A stretch of 64,000 nucleotides of DNA from Akkermansiaceae bacterium UBA2367. GTDB lineage: Bacteria > Verrucomicrobiota > Verrucomicrobiia > Verrucomicrobiales > DEV007. Location: contig DDTJ01000073.1 in NCBI GenBank assembly GCA_002344525.1, positions 3,102 to 67,101 of the forward strand, given 5' to 3'. Below are positions 5,197 through 57,667 of this stretch, in pieces; the stretch's first letter is position 1, and the number at the start of each line of letters is the position of its first letter. A program made the translations under genes and the position numbers. The notes beneath the pieces are model-generated. The model searched no databases, was not told the DNA's origin, and worked only from the letters and a program-made list of their open reading frames with translations.

Positions 5197-6693
5197 ATGA
5201 AGAAGCTTCTCCTCATCCTCGCCCTCCTCGCGGTGCTCGCCCTGATCTCCGCCTTCGTCGTGGTCCGCATCGTCGGCCCGCGGCTCGTCTCGGTGCCTCC
5301 TCCGAGCGGGGAGCCGCTCGGGGAATACGACTCGCCCCGGCCCGAGGTCTCCCTGCTCGCCCTCGGCATCGTCGTGCCCGTCGGCCTCCTCGACGAGATC
5401 GCCAACGCCGAGGCGCCCCTGACCTTCGAAGGGGGCGAGGCGAAGAATTTCCACAAGCGCATCCAGAACGGAGCCTACACCTGGGACGCGACCCGCGGCG
5501 AGATCCGCTTCCACAACACCGGGAGCAGCCTCGCCTTCACCGTGCCCTTCGAGGGGAAAGCGACCCTGCAAGGCGAACTCGACGCCTCCATCCTGAAAAT
5601 CCCGATCGAGGGCAGCGCCGATGTCGCCGGCACCGCCGGGGGAACGCTCGTGCCGGAAGTCCAATCCGACTGGAACGTGAACCCGAATTTCACCCCGGAA
5701 CTGAAGCTCGACAAAGCCAACCTGCGGCTCGGCCAACTCGGCGGCATCGACATCGGCGAATTTCTCGGCGGCAGCCTCGGCGCCTACCTGCAGGAGGAGG
5801 CCGGGAAGATCGCGCCCGTGATCCGCAAACGCTTCGACCTGCGCCGCGAAGCCGGGAAGCTGTGGAGCCAAGCCCACCTGCTCGAGCAAGTCTCCGACGA
5901 CCCCCCGCTCTGGGTCCGCGTCACCCCCCGCCGCTTCCTCCTCGGCCCCGTCGACTACGGCACGCCGGAGCAGATCGGCCTCGCCGTCGCCATCGAGAGC
6001 GAAACCTACCTCGTCAACCGCGCCCCGGCCGCCCCGGAGCTCGCGCCCCTGCCCGAACTGGGTCCCCTGCCGGAGGCGGCGGGCACCGACCTGCGCGTGC
6101 CCGTCGTCGTCAGCATGACGGAGTTGAACCGGATGATCGCGGAGGAGGACTTCGACATCGACACCGGGATCGGCACGAGGATCAAGGTCCACGGCCTCGC
6201 CGCCGAAGTCGGGCAGGGCGGCTATCTGAACCTAAAACTCGACTTGGAGGCGGACAAATCGCGCCTCGGTCGCGGCGTCGCCGGCTCCATCTGGGTGAAG
6301 GGCCGACCCGTGATCGACTACGAGAAGCAAACCCTCGGGTTCACCGGAGTCGAACTGACCGTGGAGACGCGCGACAAGCTCACCGGCGTGGCCGCCTGGC
6401 TGCTGGAGGGGATGCTCGTGAAGGGCCTCGAAGGGCAACTGCGCGTCGATCTGAACGACTACAAGGAGGAGCTCGACGAGGAGGTGCGCGAGGCTATCGC
6501 CAAAGCGGACCTGCCCGAGGGCATCGACGTCTCCCTGCAAAACCTCGAAGTGACCCTCGCCGACATCTACACCATCACCCGCCACGTCGAGGGTGGGGAG
6601 CCCGATCCCGGCATCGTCCTCGTGATCCGCGCGACCGGGGACATGAGCACGCGCGTCAGCAGCCTCGACTTCCAACGGGACAAGAATCCATGA
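5197..6693 (+). CDS. Membrane-anchored/secreted DUF4403-like protein
   Basis: N-terminal hydrophobic MKKLLLILALLAVLALI; beta-rich tubular-type body (GSIWVKGRPVIDY); family call tentative. Confidence 0.6.
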   Translation: MKKLLLILALLAVLALISAFVVVRIVGPRLVSVPPPSGEPLGEYDSPRPEVSLLALGIVVPVGLLDEIANAEAPLTFEGGEAKNFHKRIQNGAYTWDATRGEIRFHNTGSSLAFTVPFEGKATLQGELDASILKIPIEGSADVAGTAGGTLVPEVQSDWNVNPNFTPELKLDKANLRLGQLGGIDIGEFLGGSLGAYLQEEAGKIAPVIRKRFDLRREAGKLWSQAHLLEQVSDDPPLWVRVTPRRFLLGPVDYGTPEQIGLAVAIESETYLVNRAPAAPELAPLPELGPLPEAAGTDLRVPVVVSMTELNRMIAEEDFDIDTGIGTRIKVHGLAAEVGQGGYLNLKLDLEADKSRLGRGVAGSIWVKGRPVIDYEKQTLGFTGVELTVETRDKLTGVAAWLLEGMLVKGLEGQLRVDLNDYKEELDEEVREAIAKADLPEGIDVSLQNLEVTLADIYTITRHVEGGEPDPGIVLVIRATGDMSTRVSSLDFQRDKNP

Positions 6694-9029
6694 GACGCAC
6701 GTTTTTCGCCGCCGCAGCCGTCGGATTCGCCACTGCGGCGCTCTGCCAGGACGCCGCCCCGCTCCCCGGCACCGCGCCGCTCGACTGGACCGAGGAGGAC
6801 CCCTCCGTCCGCATCATGGACGGCGCCCATGCCTTCATCGACCGGAAGATCGCCGAGGCCGCGACGAAAACGCCCCGGCTCCCCCTCGACGAGGCGGCGC
6901 GGAAGGAATTCGTCGCGAACTCCCGCGAGGCCCTCGCGGGGAAGCTCGGCGTCGTCGAGGAACGGCTCCCCCCGTCTCTCGAATTCGTCTCTGTCGACCC
7001 TGTTAACTTCGAGGGCGAACCCGGCACGTCCCTCGTCGCGGAGGGCCCCGGCTTCCGCGTCCACCAGGTGCGCTGGCCCGTCCTGCCGGGATACACCGCC
7101 GAGGGGCTCTACGTGAACCCGATCCCGCTGGAGGACGGGGTCGCCTCCCCTCCCCTGATGGTCCTGATGCCCGACGCCGGCGAGACGCCCGAGGAGGTCC
7201 TCGGCCTGTCGCCCCGCCTCGAAGCGAAGGAGCGGATCGGTCTGCGCTTCGCGATGGCGGGCTTCCGCCTCCTCATCCCCGCCCCGCTCGACCGGGGGAC
7301 GTTTGGCGGTTTGTCAGGAAACGAGGAGGCCGTCCTCAAAACGAAGCAGAGCCACCGCGAATGGATCTACCGCCAAGCCTTCCAGATGGGGCGACATCCC
7401 CTCGGCTACGACGTGCAGACGATCCTCGCGGCGGTGGACTGGTTCGAAAGGGCCTTCCCCGGCGACCGGGTGGCAGCGGCCGGCTACGGCGAGGGAGGCC
7501 GCGCCGCCCTCTACGCCGCCGCCCTCGATCCCCGCGTCGGCCGCGCCTTCGTCAGCGGGGCCTTCGCCCCTCGCGACGCGGCTTGGGCCGAACCCATCGA
7601 CCGCAACATCTTCGGCCTCCTCCCCGACCACGGCGACGCCTCCGTCGCCGCCCTGATCGCCCCGCGCGTCCTCCTCGTCGAGCACACCCGCTTCCCCGAG
7701 GTGAAGGACCAGAAAGGTGATCTCACGACCCCGCCCTTCGCCGAGGTGGAGCGCGAATGGCAGAGCATCGCCACGGTGATGAACGCCTTCTCCGCGCCGC
7801 CCTCCTTTTTCCTGACGGAGGCCCACGACGGCGCTCGCGGCGACTACCCCTCGGTCGCGGGCTTCCTCCAAGCCATCGGTCGCGAACCGGACATCGAGCG
7901 CACCCCGCCCCTCGCCCTCGTCCTCGAAAAACGCCAGGCCTTCGATCCCGCGTCACGCCACCGACGCATCCTCCTCGGCTTGCAAGAGCACGTCCAAAGC
8001 CTCGTCGACGCCTCCGACCGGACGCGCGAGGAGTCCTTCCTCTTCGCCGCCGAACCGGGTCTGCGACCGGGAGGCTGGTCCGTGGAAAAGGAGCATCCCG
8101 TCCTCGGCCCGGCGAATTTCATCGTCCGCAGCGAGGAATGGCGGACCCGTTTCGAGGAGGAATTCCTCGGCGCCTTCGACGAGGAGCCGCTCCCGCCGAA
8201 TCCGCGCACGAGAAAACTGAAGGAGACGGAGGCCTGGACGATGTGGGAGGTCGGCCTCGACGTCCATCCCGGTTTCGAGACTTGGGGCGTGCTGCTCCTG
8301 CCGAAGGGGCTGAAACCCGGCGAGCGCCGCCCTGTCGTCGTCTGCCAGCACGGACGCAACGGAGTCCCCCGCGACTGCGTCGATGCGGGCAAGCCCGCCT
8401 ACAACGACTTCGCCGCCCGCCTCGCCGAGCGCGGCTACGTCACCTTCGCCCCGCACAACCTCTACCGGGGCGAGGACCGCTACCGCTGGCTCGACCGCAA
8501 GGCGAACCTCGTCGGCGGCACCCTCTTCACCTTCATCGTCTCCTCGCACCGCCAGTGCCTCGCTTGGCTGAAATCCCTGCCCGAAGTCGATCCGCAGCGC
8601 ATCGCCTTCTACGGGCTGAGCTACGGCGGCGAGACGGCGGTGCGCGTGCCGGCGGTGATCCCCGACTATTGCCTCTCGATCTGCTCGGGCGACTTCAACC
8701 AATGGACCCGCAAAGTCGCCGACCCCGATTTTCCCGGCAGCTTCATGAAGAGCGTCGAGTGGGAGATGCCCTACTGGAACCTCGGCAGCGCCTACGACTA
8801 CAGCGAGATGGCGGCCCTGATCTTTCCGCGCCCTTTCTTCGTCGAGCGCGGGCACCACGACCGCGTCTCCACCGACGCCTGGGTGGCGCACGAGTATGCG
8901 AAAGTGCGCCACCTCTACGCCCGCTTCGGCCTCGCCGACCGCACCGGGATCGAGTTCTTCCACGGCGGGCATTCGATCCACGGCGTGGGGACTTTCGAGT
9001 TTCTGGAGAGGCACCTCGGGAAGCCGTAG
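6690..9029 (+). CDS. Secreted double alpha/beta-hydrolase (dienelactone hydrolase-like)
   Basis: Signal peptide MRRTFFAAAAVG; GYGEGG and intact GLSYGG elbows; VVVCQHG; GHHD; start overlaps upstream stop. Confidence 0.8.
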   Translation: MRRTFFAAAAVGFATAALCQDAAPLPGTAPLDWTEEDPSVRIMDGAHAFIDRKIAEAATKTPRLPLDEAARKEFVANSREALAGKLGVVEERLPPSLEFVSVDPVNFEGEPGTSLVAEGPGFRVHQVRWPVLPGYTAEGLYVNPIPLEDGVASPPLMVLMPDAGETPEEVLGLSPRLEAKERIGLRFAMAGFRLLIPAPLDRGTFGGLSGNEEAVLKTKQSHREWIYRQAFQMGRHPLGYDVQTILAAVDWFERAFPGDRVAAAGYGEGGRAALYAAALDPRVGRAFVSGAFAPRDAAWAEPIDRNIFGLLPDHGDASVAALIAPRVLLVEHTRFPEVKDQKGDLTTPPFAEVEREWQSIATVMNAFSAPPSFFLTEAHDGARGDYPSVAGFLQAIGREPDIERTPPLALVLEKRQAFDPASRHRRILLGLQEHVQSLVDASDRTREESFLFAAEPGLRPGGWSVEKEHPVLGPANFIVRSEEWRTRFEEEFLGAFDEEPLPPNPRTRKLKETEAWTMWEVGLDVHPGFETWGVLLLPKGLKPGERRPVVVCQHGRNGVPRDCVDAGKPAYNDFAARLAERGYVTFAPHNLYRGEDRYRWLDRKANLVGGTLFTFIVSSHRQCLAWLKSLPEVDPQRIAFYGLSYGGETAVRVPAVIPDYCLSICSGDFNQWTRKVADPDFPGSFMKSVEWEMPYWNLGSAYDYSEMAALIFPRPFFVERGHHDRVSTDAWVAHEYAKVRHLYARFGLADRTGIEFFHGGHSIHGVGTFEFLERHLGKP

Positions 9030-9037
9030 GGTGGCCT

Positions 9038-9091
9038 ACGGAAGACGCGGAAGACGCGGAAGACGCGGAAGACGCGGAAGACACGGAAAAG
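9038..9091 (+). repeat. 9-bp tandem repeat (RCGGAAGAC x5 plus ACGGAAAAG)
   Basis: ACGGAAGAC GCGGAAGAC GCGGAAGAC GCGGAAGAC GCGGAAGAC ACGGAAAAG; CACGGAAAA (9082-9090) can pair with TTTTCCGTG (9123-9131). Confidence 0.95.
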
Positions 9092-9190
9092 GATTGGAGC
9101 GCTCAAACGGTTTTCTTTCCTGTTTTCCGTGAGGAGGTTTTTGCGCCAGTTCGTCTTGCCCTCCGTCTCCCGATCTGTCTATGATCGGGC

Positions 9191-10012
9191 ATGATTCGTC
9201 GATCTTGGAGAAAGGCGCTCGTTTTCGCGGCATTCGGCATCTTGCTCGCAACGACCGCCTGGGTCGTTGACCATCTCCAAAAACAGGCACGCCCCGATGA
9301 GGAGGTCGTCCTGTGGTCGGACCTCCGGAACAGACCGGATTCCGAAATCGGGATTCTCCAGAGCGACCTGAAACTGGCGGACCTCGACGAAGTGGTCTTC
9401 AAGGAGACGCCTTTCTCGGAATGCCTCGCACAGCTTCAGCGAATGATCGTGGACGAGCATCCCCACATCGCACCGATCACGTTCCAAATCGAGGAGGAGG
9501 TTTCGCCAACGTCTCCCATCACCCTCCATCTCCGCGAAGTGCCCGCGTTGGAGGCATTGCAATACCTTGGAGGGCTCAATTCCGCCAGATACGATCTGGA
9601 GCTTGGTCGGACCGTCGTTTTCGACGTCGGCTATCTGGACAGAGAACGGTTCCGGGAGGAAGGGTGGTTTCGTATTCCTCCCGGTTTTTTTGAGGGCATC
9701 GATCCATCAGCGGAAACAGCCAATGTGCGCGACCAACTGCAACGACTCGGCATCGCGCTCGAAAGCGGCGAAGTCTCCATCTACTACCCGAAACGGGGGC
9801 TGCTTTGGGCCTCGGCGGACGTGGACAATATGGAGGAGATCGACTTTCTTGCTTCCAGCATCTTCTACGATCCCGAACCGCCTTGGAACGACCGACTCAT
9901 GGAATGGCGGTATCGCCAGACCTCACGGCTCCGCCCCGCAGCCCCTGCGGCCCCCGTTCCTCCCGGTCCAGCCAGCGGCCAAGGCTTGCCCGACCCGTTT
10001 GGTGTCCCATAA
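9191..10012 (+). CDS. Membrane-anchored protein resembling N-terminal periplasmic domains of verrucomicrobial secretins, no barrel
   Basis: PITLHLREVPALEALQYL, FRIPPGFF, LQRLGIALESGEVSIYYPKRGLLW resemble STN/N3-type segments; Pro-rich DPFG tail. Confidence 0.6.
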   Translation: MIRRSWRKALVFAAFGILLATTAWVVDHLQKQARPDEEVVLWSDLRNRPDSEIGILQSDLKLADLDEVVFKETPFSECLAQLQRMIVDEHPHIAPITFQIEEEVSPTSPITLHLREVPALEALQYLGGLNSARYDLELGRTVVFDVGYLDRERFREEGWFRIPPGFFEGIDPSAETANVRDQLQRLGIALESGEVSIYYPKRGLLWASADVDNMEEIDFLASSIFYDPEPPWNDRLMEWRYRQTSRLRPAAPAAPVPPGPASGQGLPDPFGVP

Positions 10013-10124
10013 CGAAATTCCCCTTTCCGCGTCTTCCGTAGGCCCCCTTCCCCGTCCCTGTCCCCCCGCATTCACGTCCGTTTGCCCCGCGACGATCCGG
10101 GCCTTATCGTTCCTCCTCCCCCCG

Positions 10125-11342
10125 ATGATCCAGCGGTCCATCCCCATCGCCTACTCCCATCGCGTCGCCTTCACTCACGGGGCCTTCGACGCGAAGAACC
10201 ACACCTTGCGCGACCTCGTCGCGGAAGGATGCGCCCTCGACGGGGCGGCGAAAGTGCTCGTCCTCCTCGACGCGGGCGTGGCCGAGGCCGACCCGAGGCT
10301 GGCCGGGCGCATCCAGCAGTATTTCGCGGCCCACGCCGACACCCTGAACCTCGTCGCCGATCCCCTCCTGCTCCCCGGCGGCGAAGGCTGCAAGAACGAC
10401 TGGCCCCTCGTCGAGCGCATCTGGAAGGCGGTCGAGTTTTTCAAAATCTGCCGCCACTCCTACATCATCGCCATCGGCGGAGGGGCCTTCCTCGACCTCG
10501 CCGGCTTCGGCGCAGCCACGGCGCACCGGGGCATCCGCCTCATCCGCATGCCCACCACGACCCTGAGCCAAGGCGACGGCGGAGTCGGGGTGAAGAACGG
10601 GGTCAACCACTTCGGCAAAAAGAACTGGGTCGGCACCTTCTCCGTACCCTGCGCCGTGGTCAACGACCTCGACTTCCTCGCCACCCTACCGCCCCGCGCC
10701 TGCCGCGACGGCCTCATCGAGGCGATCAAGGTCTCGCTGATCCGCGACCGGGCCTTCTACGAATTCCTCCTCGCGAACGGCCCCGCCCTCGGCCACCTCG
10801 AAAAGCGGCCGCTGGAGACAGCGATCCGGCGCAGCGCGGAGAACCACGTCGACCACATCGCCACCAGCGGCGACCCCTTCGAACACGGCTCGGCGAGGCC
10901 CCTCGACTTCGGGCACTGGGCCGCCCACAAGCTGGAGCAGATCTCAGATTTCTCGGTGAGCCACGGCGAGGCCGTCGCCATCGGCATGGCCGTGGACCTG
11001 CTCTATTCGGTGGAGACCGGCCTGCTCCCCCGCGCCACGGCGGAGGAGATCCTCGCCCTGATCGAGACGGTCGGCTTCGAACTCTGGTCCGACGAACTCG
11101 ACCGCGAGGAGCGGGGCCGCCCCGTCGTCCTCGCGGGCTTGGAGGAATTCCGCGAGCATCTCGGGGGGCGGCTCACCATCACCCTCATCCCCGCCATCGG
11201 CAGGAAAGTCGAGGTCCACGAGATGGACGAGCGAGCCATCCTCGCCGCCCTCGCCGAGTTGAAGCGGAGGGCGCGGAAGCCTGTAGCCAGCCTCACTGAG
11301 GCCGGATCGGGTGGCCAAACGACGCTCGACCGAGGTCAGTGA
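10125..11342 (+). CDS. aroB: 3-dehydroquinate synthase
   Basis: GGEGCKN, AIGGGAFLD, PTTTLSQGDGGVGVKNG, LDFGHWAAHKLE, HGEAVAIG; C-terminal ~20 aa encoded by a REP pair. Confidence 0.92.
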   Translation: MIQRSIPIAYSHRVAFTHGAFDAKNHTLRDLVAEGCALDGAAKVLVLLDAGVAEADPRLAGRIQQYFAAHADTLNLVADPLLLPGGEGCKNDWPLVERIWKAVEFFKICRHSYIIAIGGGAFLDLAGFGAATAHRGIRLIRMPTTTLSQGDGGVGVKNGVNHFGKKNWVGTFSVPCAVVNDLDFLATLPPRACRDGLIEAIKVSLIRDRAFYEFLLANGPALGHLEKRPLETAIRRSAENHVDHIATSGDPFEHGSARPLDFGHWAAHKLEQISDFSVSHGEAVAIGMAVDLLYSVETGLLPRATAEEILALIETVGFELWSDELDREERGRPVVLAGLEEFREHLGGRLTITLIPAIGRKVEVHEMDERAILAALAELKRRARKPVASLTEAGSGGQTTLDRGQ

Positions 11343-11646: not shown

Positions 11647-12192
11647 ATGAAATTGTATATTGGAAACCTGTCCTACGACACCTCTGAGGCTGAACTGCGT
11701 GAATTCCTCAGTCCCTTCGAACCCATCCTCGATCTGCATCTGCCGATCGACCGCGACAGCGGACGCCCGCGCGGCTTCGCCTTCGTGACGCTCTCCAGCC
11801 GCGATGCCGGCGAGGCAGCCATCGCCCAACTCGACGGCGCCGAACTCGGCGGTCGCAACCTGAAGGTACGGGAGGCCGAAGAACGCCGTGGTCCCGGAGG
11901 GGGCGGCGGAGGTGGCTACGGTGGCGGTGGGGGAGGCGGCGGACGCCCCCCGCGCGGCGGTGGCTACGGCGGAGGCGGGGGAGGCGGCGGCTACGAACGT
12001 CGCGGCGGTGGAGGTGGTGGTGGCGGCGGTCGCCATCGTGGAGGCGAGCGCGGCGACTACCGTGGCGAACGCGGCGACCGGGAATACCGGGGCGGTGGTG
12101 GTAGCGGCGGCGGCGGCCGGGAATACCGGGAGCCGCGCGGTGATCGCGACGACTACGGCGGCGGCGGTGGCAAACGCTATCGCAGCCTCTGA
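11647..12192 (+). CDS. RRM RNA-binding protein with Gly/Arg-rich tail
   Basis: RNP2 KLYIGNLSY, RNP1 RGFAFVTL, long GGGG/RGG tail. Confidence 0.93.
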   Translation: MKLYIGNLSYDTSEAELREFLSPFEPILDLHLPIDRDSGRPRGFAFVTLSSRDAGEAAIAQLDGAELGGRNLKVREAEERRGPGGGGGGGYGGGGGGGGRPPRGGGYGGGGGGGGYERRGGGGGGGGGRHRGGERGDYRGERGDREYRGGGGSGGGGREYREPRGDRDDYGGGGGKRYRSL

Positions 12193-14845: not shown

Positions 14846-14894
14846 TTCGGATTTCGAGCTTCGGATTTCGGATTTCGAGACTCGACTTTCGACT
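14846..14894 (+). repeat. Heptamer tandem repeat (TTCGGAT-type) x7, single arm
   Basis: TTCGGAT TTCGAGC TTCGGAT TTCGGAT TTCGAGA CTCGACT TTCGACT. Confidence 0.85.
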
Positions 14895-14940
14895 TTCCCC
14901 GCGCCGGAGCCTCTCTACAGTGGAGGGCAGCTTCCCCCCG

Positions 14941-23252: not shown

Positions 23253-23346
23253 ACTCCTTACTCCTTACTCCTTACTCTTACCTCTTACTCCTCGTCGTTG
23301 GCCAACCGTTCTTCGGGGAGTAAGAGGTAAGAGTAAGGAGTAGGAG
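23253..23346. repeat. TACTCCT/TACTCT tandem-repeat inverted-arm hairpin
   Basis: 26-bp perfect inverted repeat 23266-23291 / 23317-23342 with 25-nt loop, built of ACTCCTT/ACTCTT units. Confidence 0.92.
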
Positions 23347-25463: not shown

Positions 25464-25620
25464 GAAATCCGAAGCCCGAAATCCGGACGCTGAACCGCTA
25501 CGCGGGACCGCTGATTGGCGCTGATCCGCGCTGATTTTTTTCCAAGCCCAGAAAAATCAGCGGCAATCAGCGAAGATCATCGGTCGCCGGAGGCCATTCG
25601 GATTTCGGGTTTCGGATTTT
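25464..25620. repeat. Nested hairpin: heptamer outer arms enclosing decamer inner arms
   Basis: Outer 25464-25485 / 25599-25620 (20/22 complementary, TTCGGAT family); inner CGCTGATnnn x3 (25509-25538) versus AATCAGCG-type units (25552-25582). Confidence 0.88.
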
Positions 25621-57560: not shown

Positions 57561-57667
57561 CTCCTGCTCATACTCCCTACTCCTTACTCTTACTCCTCCC
57601 TGCTCTAGCCCAAAATCGGGGAGTAAGAGTAAGAGTAAGAGTAAGGAGTAGGGAGTATGAGCAGGAG
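57561..57667. repeat. TACTC-family tandem-repeat inverted-arm hairpin
   Basis: 35-bp perfect inverted repeat 57561-57595 / 57633-57667, with extra GAGTAA units in the right arm. Confidence 0.93.

Follow-up and report, generated by a model that had tools for sequence, protein, structure and literature searches.

Does a gene that lies between the arms of a perfect inverted repeat owe its position to that repeat, as cargo inserted into a hairpin would, or can such an arrangement come about in another way? The question is raised by a locus of Akkermansiaceae bacterium UBA2367, located in a stretch of 64,000 nucleotides that was analysed as a whole (the window). The 20-bp sequence GGCCTACGGAAGACGCGGAA occurs on the forward strand at 9033–9052 and its exact reverse complement at 10025–10044. 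The initial annotation reasoned that the gene between these arms had been inserted into a repeat hairpin between a hydrolase gene and aroB. Overall, the 20-bp inverted repeat is likely to come from two distinct copies, close to each other, of a palindromic repeat that is intergenic, dispersed, and lineage-specific.

The anatomy of the locus was described correctly in the initial annotation. The CDS at 9191–10012 (ORF273) is the sole credible gene between the arms. The left arm does run on into six 9-mers (5.6 copies of the 9-mer at 9039–9088 in Tandem Repeats Finder), CCGTAGG occurs as a direct repeat at 9024–9030 and 10036–10042, and its left copy pairs with CCTACGG at 9035–9041 in a 7-bp hairpin that is present in the RNA fold. 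By sequence and fold, this hairpin (CCGTAGG-GTGG-CCTACGG, 9024–9041, forward strand) is composed of the hydrolase stop region and the head of a repeat element, E1; the stop region is also found in G002, the closest sister species, as CCGTAGGG, without the element. The hydrolase (6690–9029, forward strand) is a 779-aa alpha/beta hydrolase of the dienelactone-hydrolase-like type (Pfam DLH, 1.8e-12), paired with an upstream DUF4403 gene throughout the genus, with synteny in more than 14 genus members. On the other side of ORF273, an upstream leader (10045–10124, forward strand) with a CCCCGCATTCACGTCCGTTTGCC...GGGCCTTATCG block that is kept across the genus precedes aroB, which encodes 3-dehydroquinate synthase (10125–11342, forward strand; NCBIfam NF004852, 2.9e-157). 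An Rfam scan of 8800–10300 gave no match. Within the window the bracketing pair is non-random: there are no further matches to the 20-mer with up to three mismatches, and shuffles expect 0.01.

The genome search for the 20-mer that the initial annotation had recommended places the pair in a dispersed family, with 18 matches at up to two mismatches in the 4.4-Mb genome of this stretch (G000). A stricter family pattern identifies 33 arms at 27 loci, and no arm when the pattern is reversed as a control. A complete copy consists of a GGCCTAC head (read as GTAGGCC on the opposite strand), 2–6 tandem 9-mers (CGGAAnnCn), a variable interior, and a mirror-image arm; either CCGTAGGCC or CCGTGGGCC stands at the end of every arm. 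Typically, a copy is an inverted pair of arms 10–50 bp apart. Nine of the 12 strict inverted pairs in G000 have spacers of 10–47 bp, and the remaining spacers measure 163, 260, and 936 bp. At least 22 of the 27 loci are not within long high-GC3 frames; many of the loci start 3–20 nt past a stop codon. The interiors differ among copies, a shared inner module being present only in G017 and G020. The interior of the C39 element was considered as GxxExxY, for which Pfam gave no confirmation. The family is found in five sister species (G002, G012, G013, G017, and G020); among the genomes of other families searched within the order, one isolated match is the sole exception to its absence. No transposase or other copying mechanism was found to be linked to it.

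Because the 20-mer belongs to a dispersed family and the loci of this family are clustered, finding such a bracket is much less surprising than it would seem from the window by itself. A perfect 20/20 inverted match with one gene inside is still somewhat unlikely, at roughly 5–20% before any local copying is considered. It is conceivable that the two elements arrived independently, and that their adjacency and orientation are coincidental, with no link through local copying or rearrangement. Random placement of the 27 loci brings two of them within 1.5 kb, in any orientation, in about 20% of simulations (probability ~0.2), and the commonest arm variant, carried by 6 arms, is the 19-mer GCCTACGGAAGACGCGGAA. 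However, the exact 20-mer is limited to four arms within 11 kb (C27:2155, 2185, 12134, and 13126), and the clustering is significant: seven pairs of neighbouring loci are less than 10 kb apart against 1.4 expected, and 0 of 2000 simulations reach 7. Pure coincidence is therefore unlikely. The exact 20-mer is carried solely by E1, the element at the right arm (E2), and a further copy 10 kb upstream, so these three most likely arose from one another by local copying.

Comparison of the G000 and G002 intergenic regions delimits E1 as a self-contained repeat copy of ~105 bp (9032 to ~9140, forward strand). Its left arm (9033–9088, forward strand), formed by the GGCCTAC head and six 9-mer units, is expanded, as other copies hold 2–4 units. 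E1 also has a truncated right arm of its own, TTTCCTGTTTTCCGTGAG (9116–9133, forward strand), recognised from its fold and from comparison with the C106 and C6 copies, which pairs with the last units of the left arm and is without the terminal TTCCGTAGGCC unit. The left arm belongs to this separate element, and the supposition that it is half of a hairpin split by the gene is not supported. E1 is missing at the orthologous hydrolase–ORF junction of G002. The interior of E1 is no closer to the G002 element upstream of aroB than to unrelated copies; element interiors evolve fast, and so the dissimilarity between E1 and the left half of E2 in G002 is weak evidence against their orthology. The local fold of E1 is strong (−48.5 kcal/mol, z = −3.5) and is followed by TTTTT, and a scan with a terminator consensus found no terminator. 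E1 is probably a terminator hairpin, or an insulator that separates the hydrolase from the ORF273 promoter.

The arrangement in G002 is informative on both sides of the gene. The hydrolase of G002 (82% identity) is followed by a 61-bp spacer, in which TTGCCC-18-TATGAT is kept, and then by the ORF273 ortholog (54–56% identity), with the repeat on neither side of the ortholog. No clear target-site duplication is apparent between the filled site of G000 and the empty site of G002, the spacer being strongly diverged. The aroB gene of G002 (90% identity) sits elsewhere, in the order of a different gene, a complete element, and aroB. When reciprocal products of a rearrangement were sought, the different gene gave no tblastn match in G000, and the G002 genes downstream of the ORF273 ortholog were located on contig C86, where the corresponding junction is without the repeat. 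The right arm of the complete G002 element and the downstream leader align with window positions 10022–10124. The E2 right arm (10025–10044, reverse strand) has its ortholog in the right arm of the G002 element and is one 9-bp unit shorter. In the junction zone (9999–10024, forward strand), homology to the G002 ortholog stops at ...GACCCGTTTG, a breakpoint placed by eye; the right part of the loop of the aroB element appears to be the source of the last ORF273 codons, of the stop codon, and of the ~12 nt that follow. As the 3' end of the gene is fused to the remnant of the E2 loop and to its right arm, the right boundary of ORF273 lies within a former hairpin element.

These observations divide the idea of a cargo gene within one hairpin into two parts. 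The right boundary in a former hairpin stands; the left side does not, because the G002 gene adjoins the hydrolase without repeats. The synteny check suggested in the initial annotation likewise finds the gene kept without repeats in G002, on the hydrolase side only, which counts against the insertion there. If ORF273 had been inserted into the loop of a single hairpin, so that the arms are its two halves, the 20/20 match, the proper orientation, and the loop remnant at the right boundary would all be expected, and long interiors are known in other copies (163 and 260 bp, one of which apparently contains a gene fragment). Nevertheless, the left element with its internal right arm, the position of the G002 gene, which follows the hydrolase immediately and has the same promoter-like site but no arms, and the complete G002 element between a different gene and aroB all speak against a split hairpin. 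ORF273 is also single-copy in the genome, and 0 of 7 homologs from other species are flanked by family arms or by any consistent inverted repeat. A split hairpin is therefore very unlikely. In the remaining genus members, no elements were found at either site.

The preferred account of two neighbouring repeat copies would entail the following history, the order of which, including gain of E1 in G000 as opposed to loss in G002, we infer from one informative sister genome, G002. ORF273 would be an older accessory gene of low GC3 that adjoined the hydrolase before either repeat came. E2 would have inserted upstream of aroB before this species and G002 diverged from their common ancestor. In the present lineage, a rearrangement may then have fused the ORF273 3' end with the E2 loop, which would have removed the left half of E2 and re-made the last ORF273 codons. 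Loss of one 9-bp unit from the remaining E2 right arm could have produced the exact 20-mer. E1, a complete but asymmetric copy, would have arisen 3' of the hydrolase stop codon and 5' of the ORF273 promoter; slippage may later have added units to its left arm.

A promoter-like site, TTGCCC-18-TATGAT (9156–9185, forward strand), ends 5 nt before the ORF273 ATG and is the sequence kept in G002. It suggests that ORF273 has its own, possibly leaderless, transcript starting downstream of the left arm. This bears on the possibility that the arms act at the RNA level, forming a 20-bp long-range stem around the ORF273 message in hydrolase read-through and thereby processing or stabilising it. The complementarity is perfect, and the arms, neither of which overlaps the CDS, could be part of one co-transcript, on the same strand. 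However, the conserved promoter-like site lies 3' of the left arm, and therefore the gene's own transcript would be without that arm; moreover, E1 folds strongly by itself, and the arrangement is entirely missing in G002, so that an RNA stem has only a slim chance of being the explanation. Least probable of all is phase variation by inversion, in which recombination at the two arms would flip a segment with ORF273 and its promoter. A perfect 20-bp inverted repeat does enclose a promoter and an envelope-protein gene, and a single recombinase could act on a conserved family of repeats, but most family spacers (10–50 bp) leave too little DNA to invert, an identical locus in a single orientation is seen in four independent assemblies, and metagenome contigs do not contain the 33-mer predicted for the inverted junction, the last two being weak tests because minority variants are lost from contigs.

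The enclosed gene has properties of its own. The impression that it is richer in A/T than its neighbours is borne out by calculation (ORF273 GC 0.591 and GC3 0.675; GC3 of 0.887 for the hydrolase and 0.904 for aroB), and in composition it is near the 8th percentile among ~2290 long ORFs of the genome. The G002 ortholog also has a low GC3 (0.731 versus 0.889 for the G002 hydrolase), which fits an older origin of the gene. The protein carries an N-terminal transmembrane anchor, an STN/N0-like domain (residues ~60–146) and an N1-like domain (~156–224), a Trp-rich helix, and a Pro-rich tail with a PDPF end, a layout drawn from the structure model, Foldseek, and an alignment of 8 homologs. The AlphaFold2 (AF2) model has a mean pLDDT of 77, with 85–97 in the domain cores. 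Its top Foldseek matches are nearly all secretin N0–N1 domains, together with anti-sigma STN domains (E 4e-6 to 1e-3, probability 0.99–1.0), and it superimposes on the STN domains of 4m0h and 6ovk with an rmsd of ~2 Å over 80 residues. The earlier description of a secretin-N-like protein without a barrel, which the initial annotation took for a possible accessory or decoy envelope protein, agrees with the structure check, as the fold is N0/N1-like and the protein ends at residue 273. ORF273 is predicted to be periplasmic and anchored to the membrane, with a fold of the secretin N0/N1 (STN-like) type.

In sequence searches, ORF273 has no significant match in Pfam, NCBIfam, or PADLOC (a weak Amuc_1098 secretin match, E = 0.005), and its profile has none among PDB sequences. 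It falls below the threshold of Pfam STN (PF07660), whereas relatives of the module obtained by profile search are above it (P0010, for example, at 2.4e-13) and also reach Secretin_N (1e-11). Among metagenome contigs and 5.8 billion proteins, its relatives are the G002 ortholog and others that are all at most 39% identical. The stand-alone family that combines a transmembrane anchor, STN/N1 domains, and a PDPF tail is uncharacterised; the module class is large and already recognisable.

The locus is largely ordinary. It illustrates how proliferating intergenic repeats can, as a by-product, leave a striking perfect inverted repeat around a gene, which is then not a sign of gene mobility. The repeat family is a modest curiosity, with a REP-like GTAG-type head and arms of slippage-prone tandem 9-mers. 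It occurs in clusters and in only a few sister species, and no transposase was identified for it. It is a speculative extension, in which we place little confidence, that 9-mer-armed elements may copy themselves locally, that they are fragile sites with loops that serve as breakpoints for changes of gene order in the genus, and that the inverted pair could permit inversion or composite movement of ORF273. If the loops were recurrent breakpoints, this would help explain the poor conservation of gene order in the genus.

Among known systems, the family most invites comparison with GTAG-tagged REP/REPIN sequences, repetitive extragenic palindromes that are mobilised by RAYT tyrosine transposases, are recognised by a conserved terminal GTAG (or GTGG) tetranucleotide, and have been reported in Verrucomicrobia (Di Nocera et al. 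2013, PMC3733652). Like these, the present repeats are short, dispersed, intergenic, and palindromic, mostly just 3' of coding regions; they carry the terminal tag (GTAGGCC, or GTGGGCC in a subfamily), occur in clustered inverted doublets, and differ in copy number between sister species. Unlike a REP unit, which is a 20–40 bp imperfect palindrome with its own stem-loop, the arms here are a head plus a variable number of tandem 9-mers without self-complementarity, only the pair of arms folds, and whole elements span 60–190 bp with variable interiors. Several RAYT-like genes are present in the host genome, and each has a REP family of its own on its flanks. In incomplete assemblies, from which a cognate gene could be missing, family arms lie within ~1.5 kb of 0 of 5 Y1_Tnp genes in G000 and 0 of 30 Y1_Tnp loci in G020, G017, G012, and G002. 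MITEs are resembled in that terminal inverted repeats of 20–30 bp enclose 10–150 bp of non-coding DNA and that copies are dispersed and lineage-restricted, but the interiors are not conserved and no insertion sequence that shares their ends was identified as a parent. As for the protein, the AF2 fold of ORF273 matches secretin N0–N1 domains (GspD/XcpQ, PilQ, InvG/EscC/MxiD) and the STN domain of FecR/PupR-type anti-sigma regulators. In contrast to secretins, it is without the C-terminal beta-barrel (PF00263), ends in a helix and Pro-rich tail, has an N-terminal transmembrane anchor instead of a signal peptide, and lies outside secretion or pilus operons. The module (~55–226) also occurs, often repeated, in the periplasmic parts of BlaR1-type Peptidase_M56 sensors of PVC bacteria. 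ORF273 differs from these in being a stand-alone protein with a PDPF tail, without the M56 protease and the multi-pass membrane part. Of the multidomain relatives scanned, 7 of 10 carry Peptidase_M56, and the relatives of the ORF273 module are mostly domains of BlaR1-type M56 sensors rather than of secretins.

The 20-mer GGCCTACGGAAGACGCGGAA on the forward strand (9033-9052) has its exact reverse complement at 10025-10044. A tandem array of 5.6 copies of a 9-mer occupies 9039-9088. Copies of CCGTAGG lie at 9024-9030 and 10036-10042; the first of them pairs with CCTACGG (9035-9041) in a hairpin that is present in the predicted fold. The only credible gene between the two arms is ORF273 (CDS 9191-10012, plus strand), which lies between a hydrolase gene (6690-9029) and aroB (10125-11342). 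The initial annotation had reported all of these features, and each is confirmed. The lower GC content it ascribed to the gene also holds: ORF273 has a GC of 0.591 and a GC3 of 0.675, against GC3 values of 0.887 for the hydrolase gene and 0.904 for aroB, which puts it at about the 8th percentile among long ORFs genome-wide. The locus is identical and in a single orientation in 4 independent assemblies of the same population; the predicted inverted-junction sequence had no match in metagenome contigs, a weak negative.

The window occupies C27:3102-67101 of an assembly of 4.38 Mb in 110 contigs. The 20-mer belongs to a dispersed repeat family: this assembly has 18 matches to it at ≤2 mismatches and 38 at ≤4. 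With the family pattern GCCYACGGAANNNNCGGAA, 33 arms at 27 loci are recovered, and with the reversed-control pattern none. The usual copy is an inverted pair: a GGCC[T/C]AC head leads into 2-4 tandem 9-mers (CGGAAnnCn), and a mirror-image arm follows after an interior that is short and variable. There are 12 strict inverted pairs, nine with spacers of 10-47 bp and the others with spacers of 163, 260 and 936 bp, the last being the window locus. Many loci start a few bases past a stop codon, and at least 22 of the 27 are outside any long coding-like frame. The 260-bp interior of the element at C39:54898-55215 resembles by eye, on its minus strand (MGNILYRQESYQIRGAYFEVYKEKG...), the N-terminus of a GxxExxY-type protein; a Pfam match is absent.

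The family is restricted to one subclade of the genus, with 33 arms in the genome under study, 17 in its closest sister species (G002), and 25, 45, 44 and 6 in the sister species G012, G017, G020 and G013, respectively. The genomes searched from other families of the order yielded a single isolated match. The elements of G017 and G020 are 120-190 bp long, with variable interiors that have a common inner hairpin module, and are flanked by tandem ...CGATGGTAGGCC units.

The initial annotation regarded ORF273 as cargo inserted into one repeat hairpin between the hydrolase gene and aroB. A DUF4403 gene and the hydrolase gene are kept as a pair throughout the genus, and the gene that follows varies in nearly every species. 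Only in G002, among genus members, is it an ORF273 ortholog (54-56% identity, vs 82% for the hydrolase and 90% for aroB); both junctions are informed by a single sister genome. There, the 61-bp spacer is repeat-free and carries the same putative promoter, TTGCCC-18-TATGAT-CGGGC-ATG. The genome under study has ~105 extra bases immediately 3' of the common CCGTAGGG. These form a self-contained element, E1 (9032-~9140), whose left arm is expanded and whose right arm (9116-9133) is truncated, with a loop of ~27 nt between them; its local fold is -48.5 kcal/mol (z = -3.5), and TTTTT follows. E1 is a candidate terminator. In G002, the conserved aroB leader is preceded by a complete element, E2, which in turn follows a transporter-like gene; the right arm of this element and all downstream sequence align with window 10022-10124, where by eye the arm is one 9-bp unit shorter. 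Other genus members have an element at neither site. The E1 interior is no more similar to the G002 aroB element than to unrelated copies; we take E1 and the right arm (E2) to be separate elements. Homology of the ORF273 orthologs stops by eye at ...GACCCGTTTG (~9999), so the right part of the former E2 loop seems to have supplied the last codons and stop. The aroB upstream block CCCCGCATTCACGTCCGTTTGCC ... GGGCCTTATCG (10045-10124) is conserved in 15 genus members (L054-L069) despite differing flanking genes and could serve as a promoter or a regulatory leader.

With a repeat-free junction in G002, a complete aroB element elsewhere and a self-contained E1, the cargo reading is largely unsupported. 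The order of events that we infer is as follows. ORF273 would have stood beside the hydrolase gene before either repeat arrived, and the ancestor shared by the two species would have acquired E2 upstream of aroB. In the lineage under study, a rearrangement would then have joined the ORF273 3' end to the E2 loop, with loss of the left half of E2. Finally, E1 would have been gained between the hydrolase gene and the putative ORF273 promoter; alternatively, E1 was lost in G002. Overall, an older accessory gene is flanked here by two copies of a repeat family that is modestly unusual.

Simulated random placement puts two loci within 1.5 kb in ~20% of runs. The exact 20-mer is limited to four arms within 11 kb of one contig (C27:2155, 2185, 12134 and 13126), and neighboring locus pairs <10 kb apart number 7, vs 1.4 expected, a pattern that favors local copying over chance alone. 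At C27:2155-2204, ~950 bp before the window start, there is a perfect palindrome, GGCCTACGGAAGACGCGGAAAACA-NN-TGTTTTCCGCGTCTTCCGTAGGCC, with arms identical to those of the window locus. Every other copy is imperfect and has a longer loop; the two N in this one could mask a fault in the assembly.

ORF273 has no significant match in Pfam, NCBIfam, PADLOC or PDB sequences. Eight homologs went into an AF2 model (mean pLDDT 77; 85-97 in the domain cores), in which a transmembrane helix is followed by two alpha/beta domains, then a Trp-rich helix and finally a disordered Pro-rich tail. Secretin N0-N1 domains (PilQ, EscC, MxiD, XcpQ, InvG, GspD) account for nearly all of its best Foldseek matches in the PDB, and STN domains of anti-sigma factors match too. 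A profile search recovered 1649 representatives, mostly large proteins carrying the module 1-6 times; BlaR1-type Peptidase_M56 occurs in 7 of the 10 relatives scanned, several of which have Pfam matches to STN or Secretin_N. These fold matches and relatives bear out the earlier description of a secretin-N-like protein lacking the barrel. The nearest relatives are periplasmic sensor modules, not secretins, and any function assigned to ORF273 is putative. The Pro-rich tail of the family (alignment A1) ends in a (P)DPF motif, with PDPFG four times in the G035 homolog. A 205-aa paralog (C66:57455-58069) lacks the second domain; it has the transmembrane anchor, an STN-like domain and the Trp-rich helix, and it ends in DPFQ.

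Further intergenic short-unit arrays occur at window 14846-14897, 23253-23346, 25509-25619 and 57571-57657 and at C7:2230-2340, with units such as TTCGGAT, ACTCCTT/GAGTAA and CGCTGATTCG; some are inverted pairs, and at C7 three short-unit families and a solo 9-mer arm are nested in 110 bp. The tandem repeats at 11895-12026 reflect the long Gly/Arg-rich tail coded by an RRM-type RNA-binding protein gene (11647-12192).

The genome is rich in REPs. At least four RAYT-like Y1 transposase genes (C31:14464-15084, C95:8162-8794, C100:7548-8138, C62:36878-37450) each have their own flanking palindromic family, so the genome hosts several REPtron-like systems. CTAC/GTAG tags occur in two of these four families. 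The family flanking the C62 gene, …GAACGTCGTTTGGACG…GGCCGAGGTCAnTGACCTCGGCTACAG, also lies 3' of the ORF273 ortholog in G002 (L017:3727-3800) and, at C51:232900-232980 and C106:38200-38260 of the genome under study, adjoins two 9-mer elements. None of 35 Y1_Tnp genes inspected in the genome under study and four sisters is flanked by 9-mer arms. Since REP traits are present, yet the arms are not stem-loops and no such gene is flanked, we class the window family as a REP/MITE-like variant for which the genes inspected offer no mobilizing enzyme. It shares with GTAG-tagged REPs (PMC3733652) a terminal GTAG or GTGG tag, an intergenic position just past genes, inverted doublets and a species-variable copy number; unlike those of REPs, its arms are built of tandem 9-mers.
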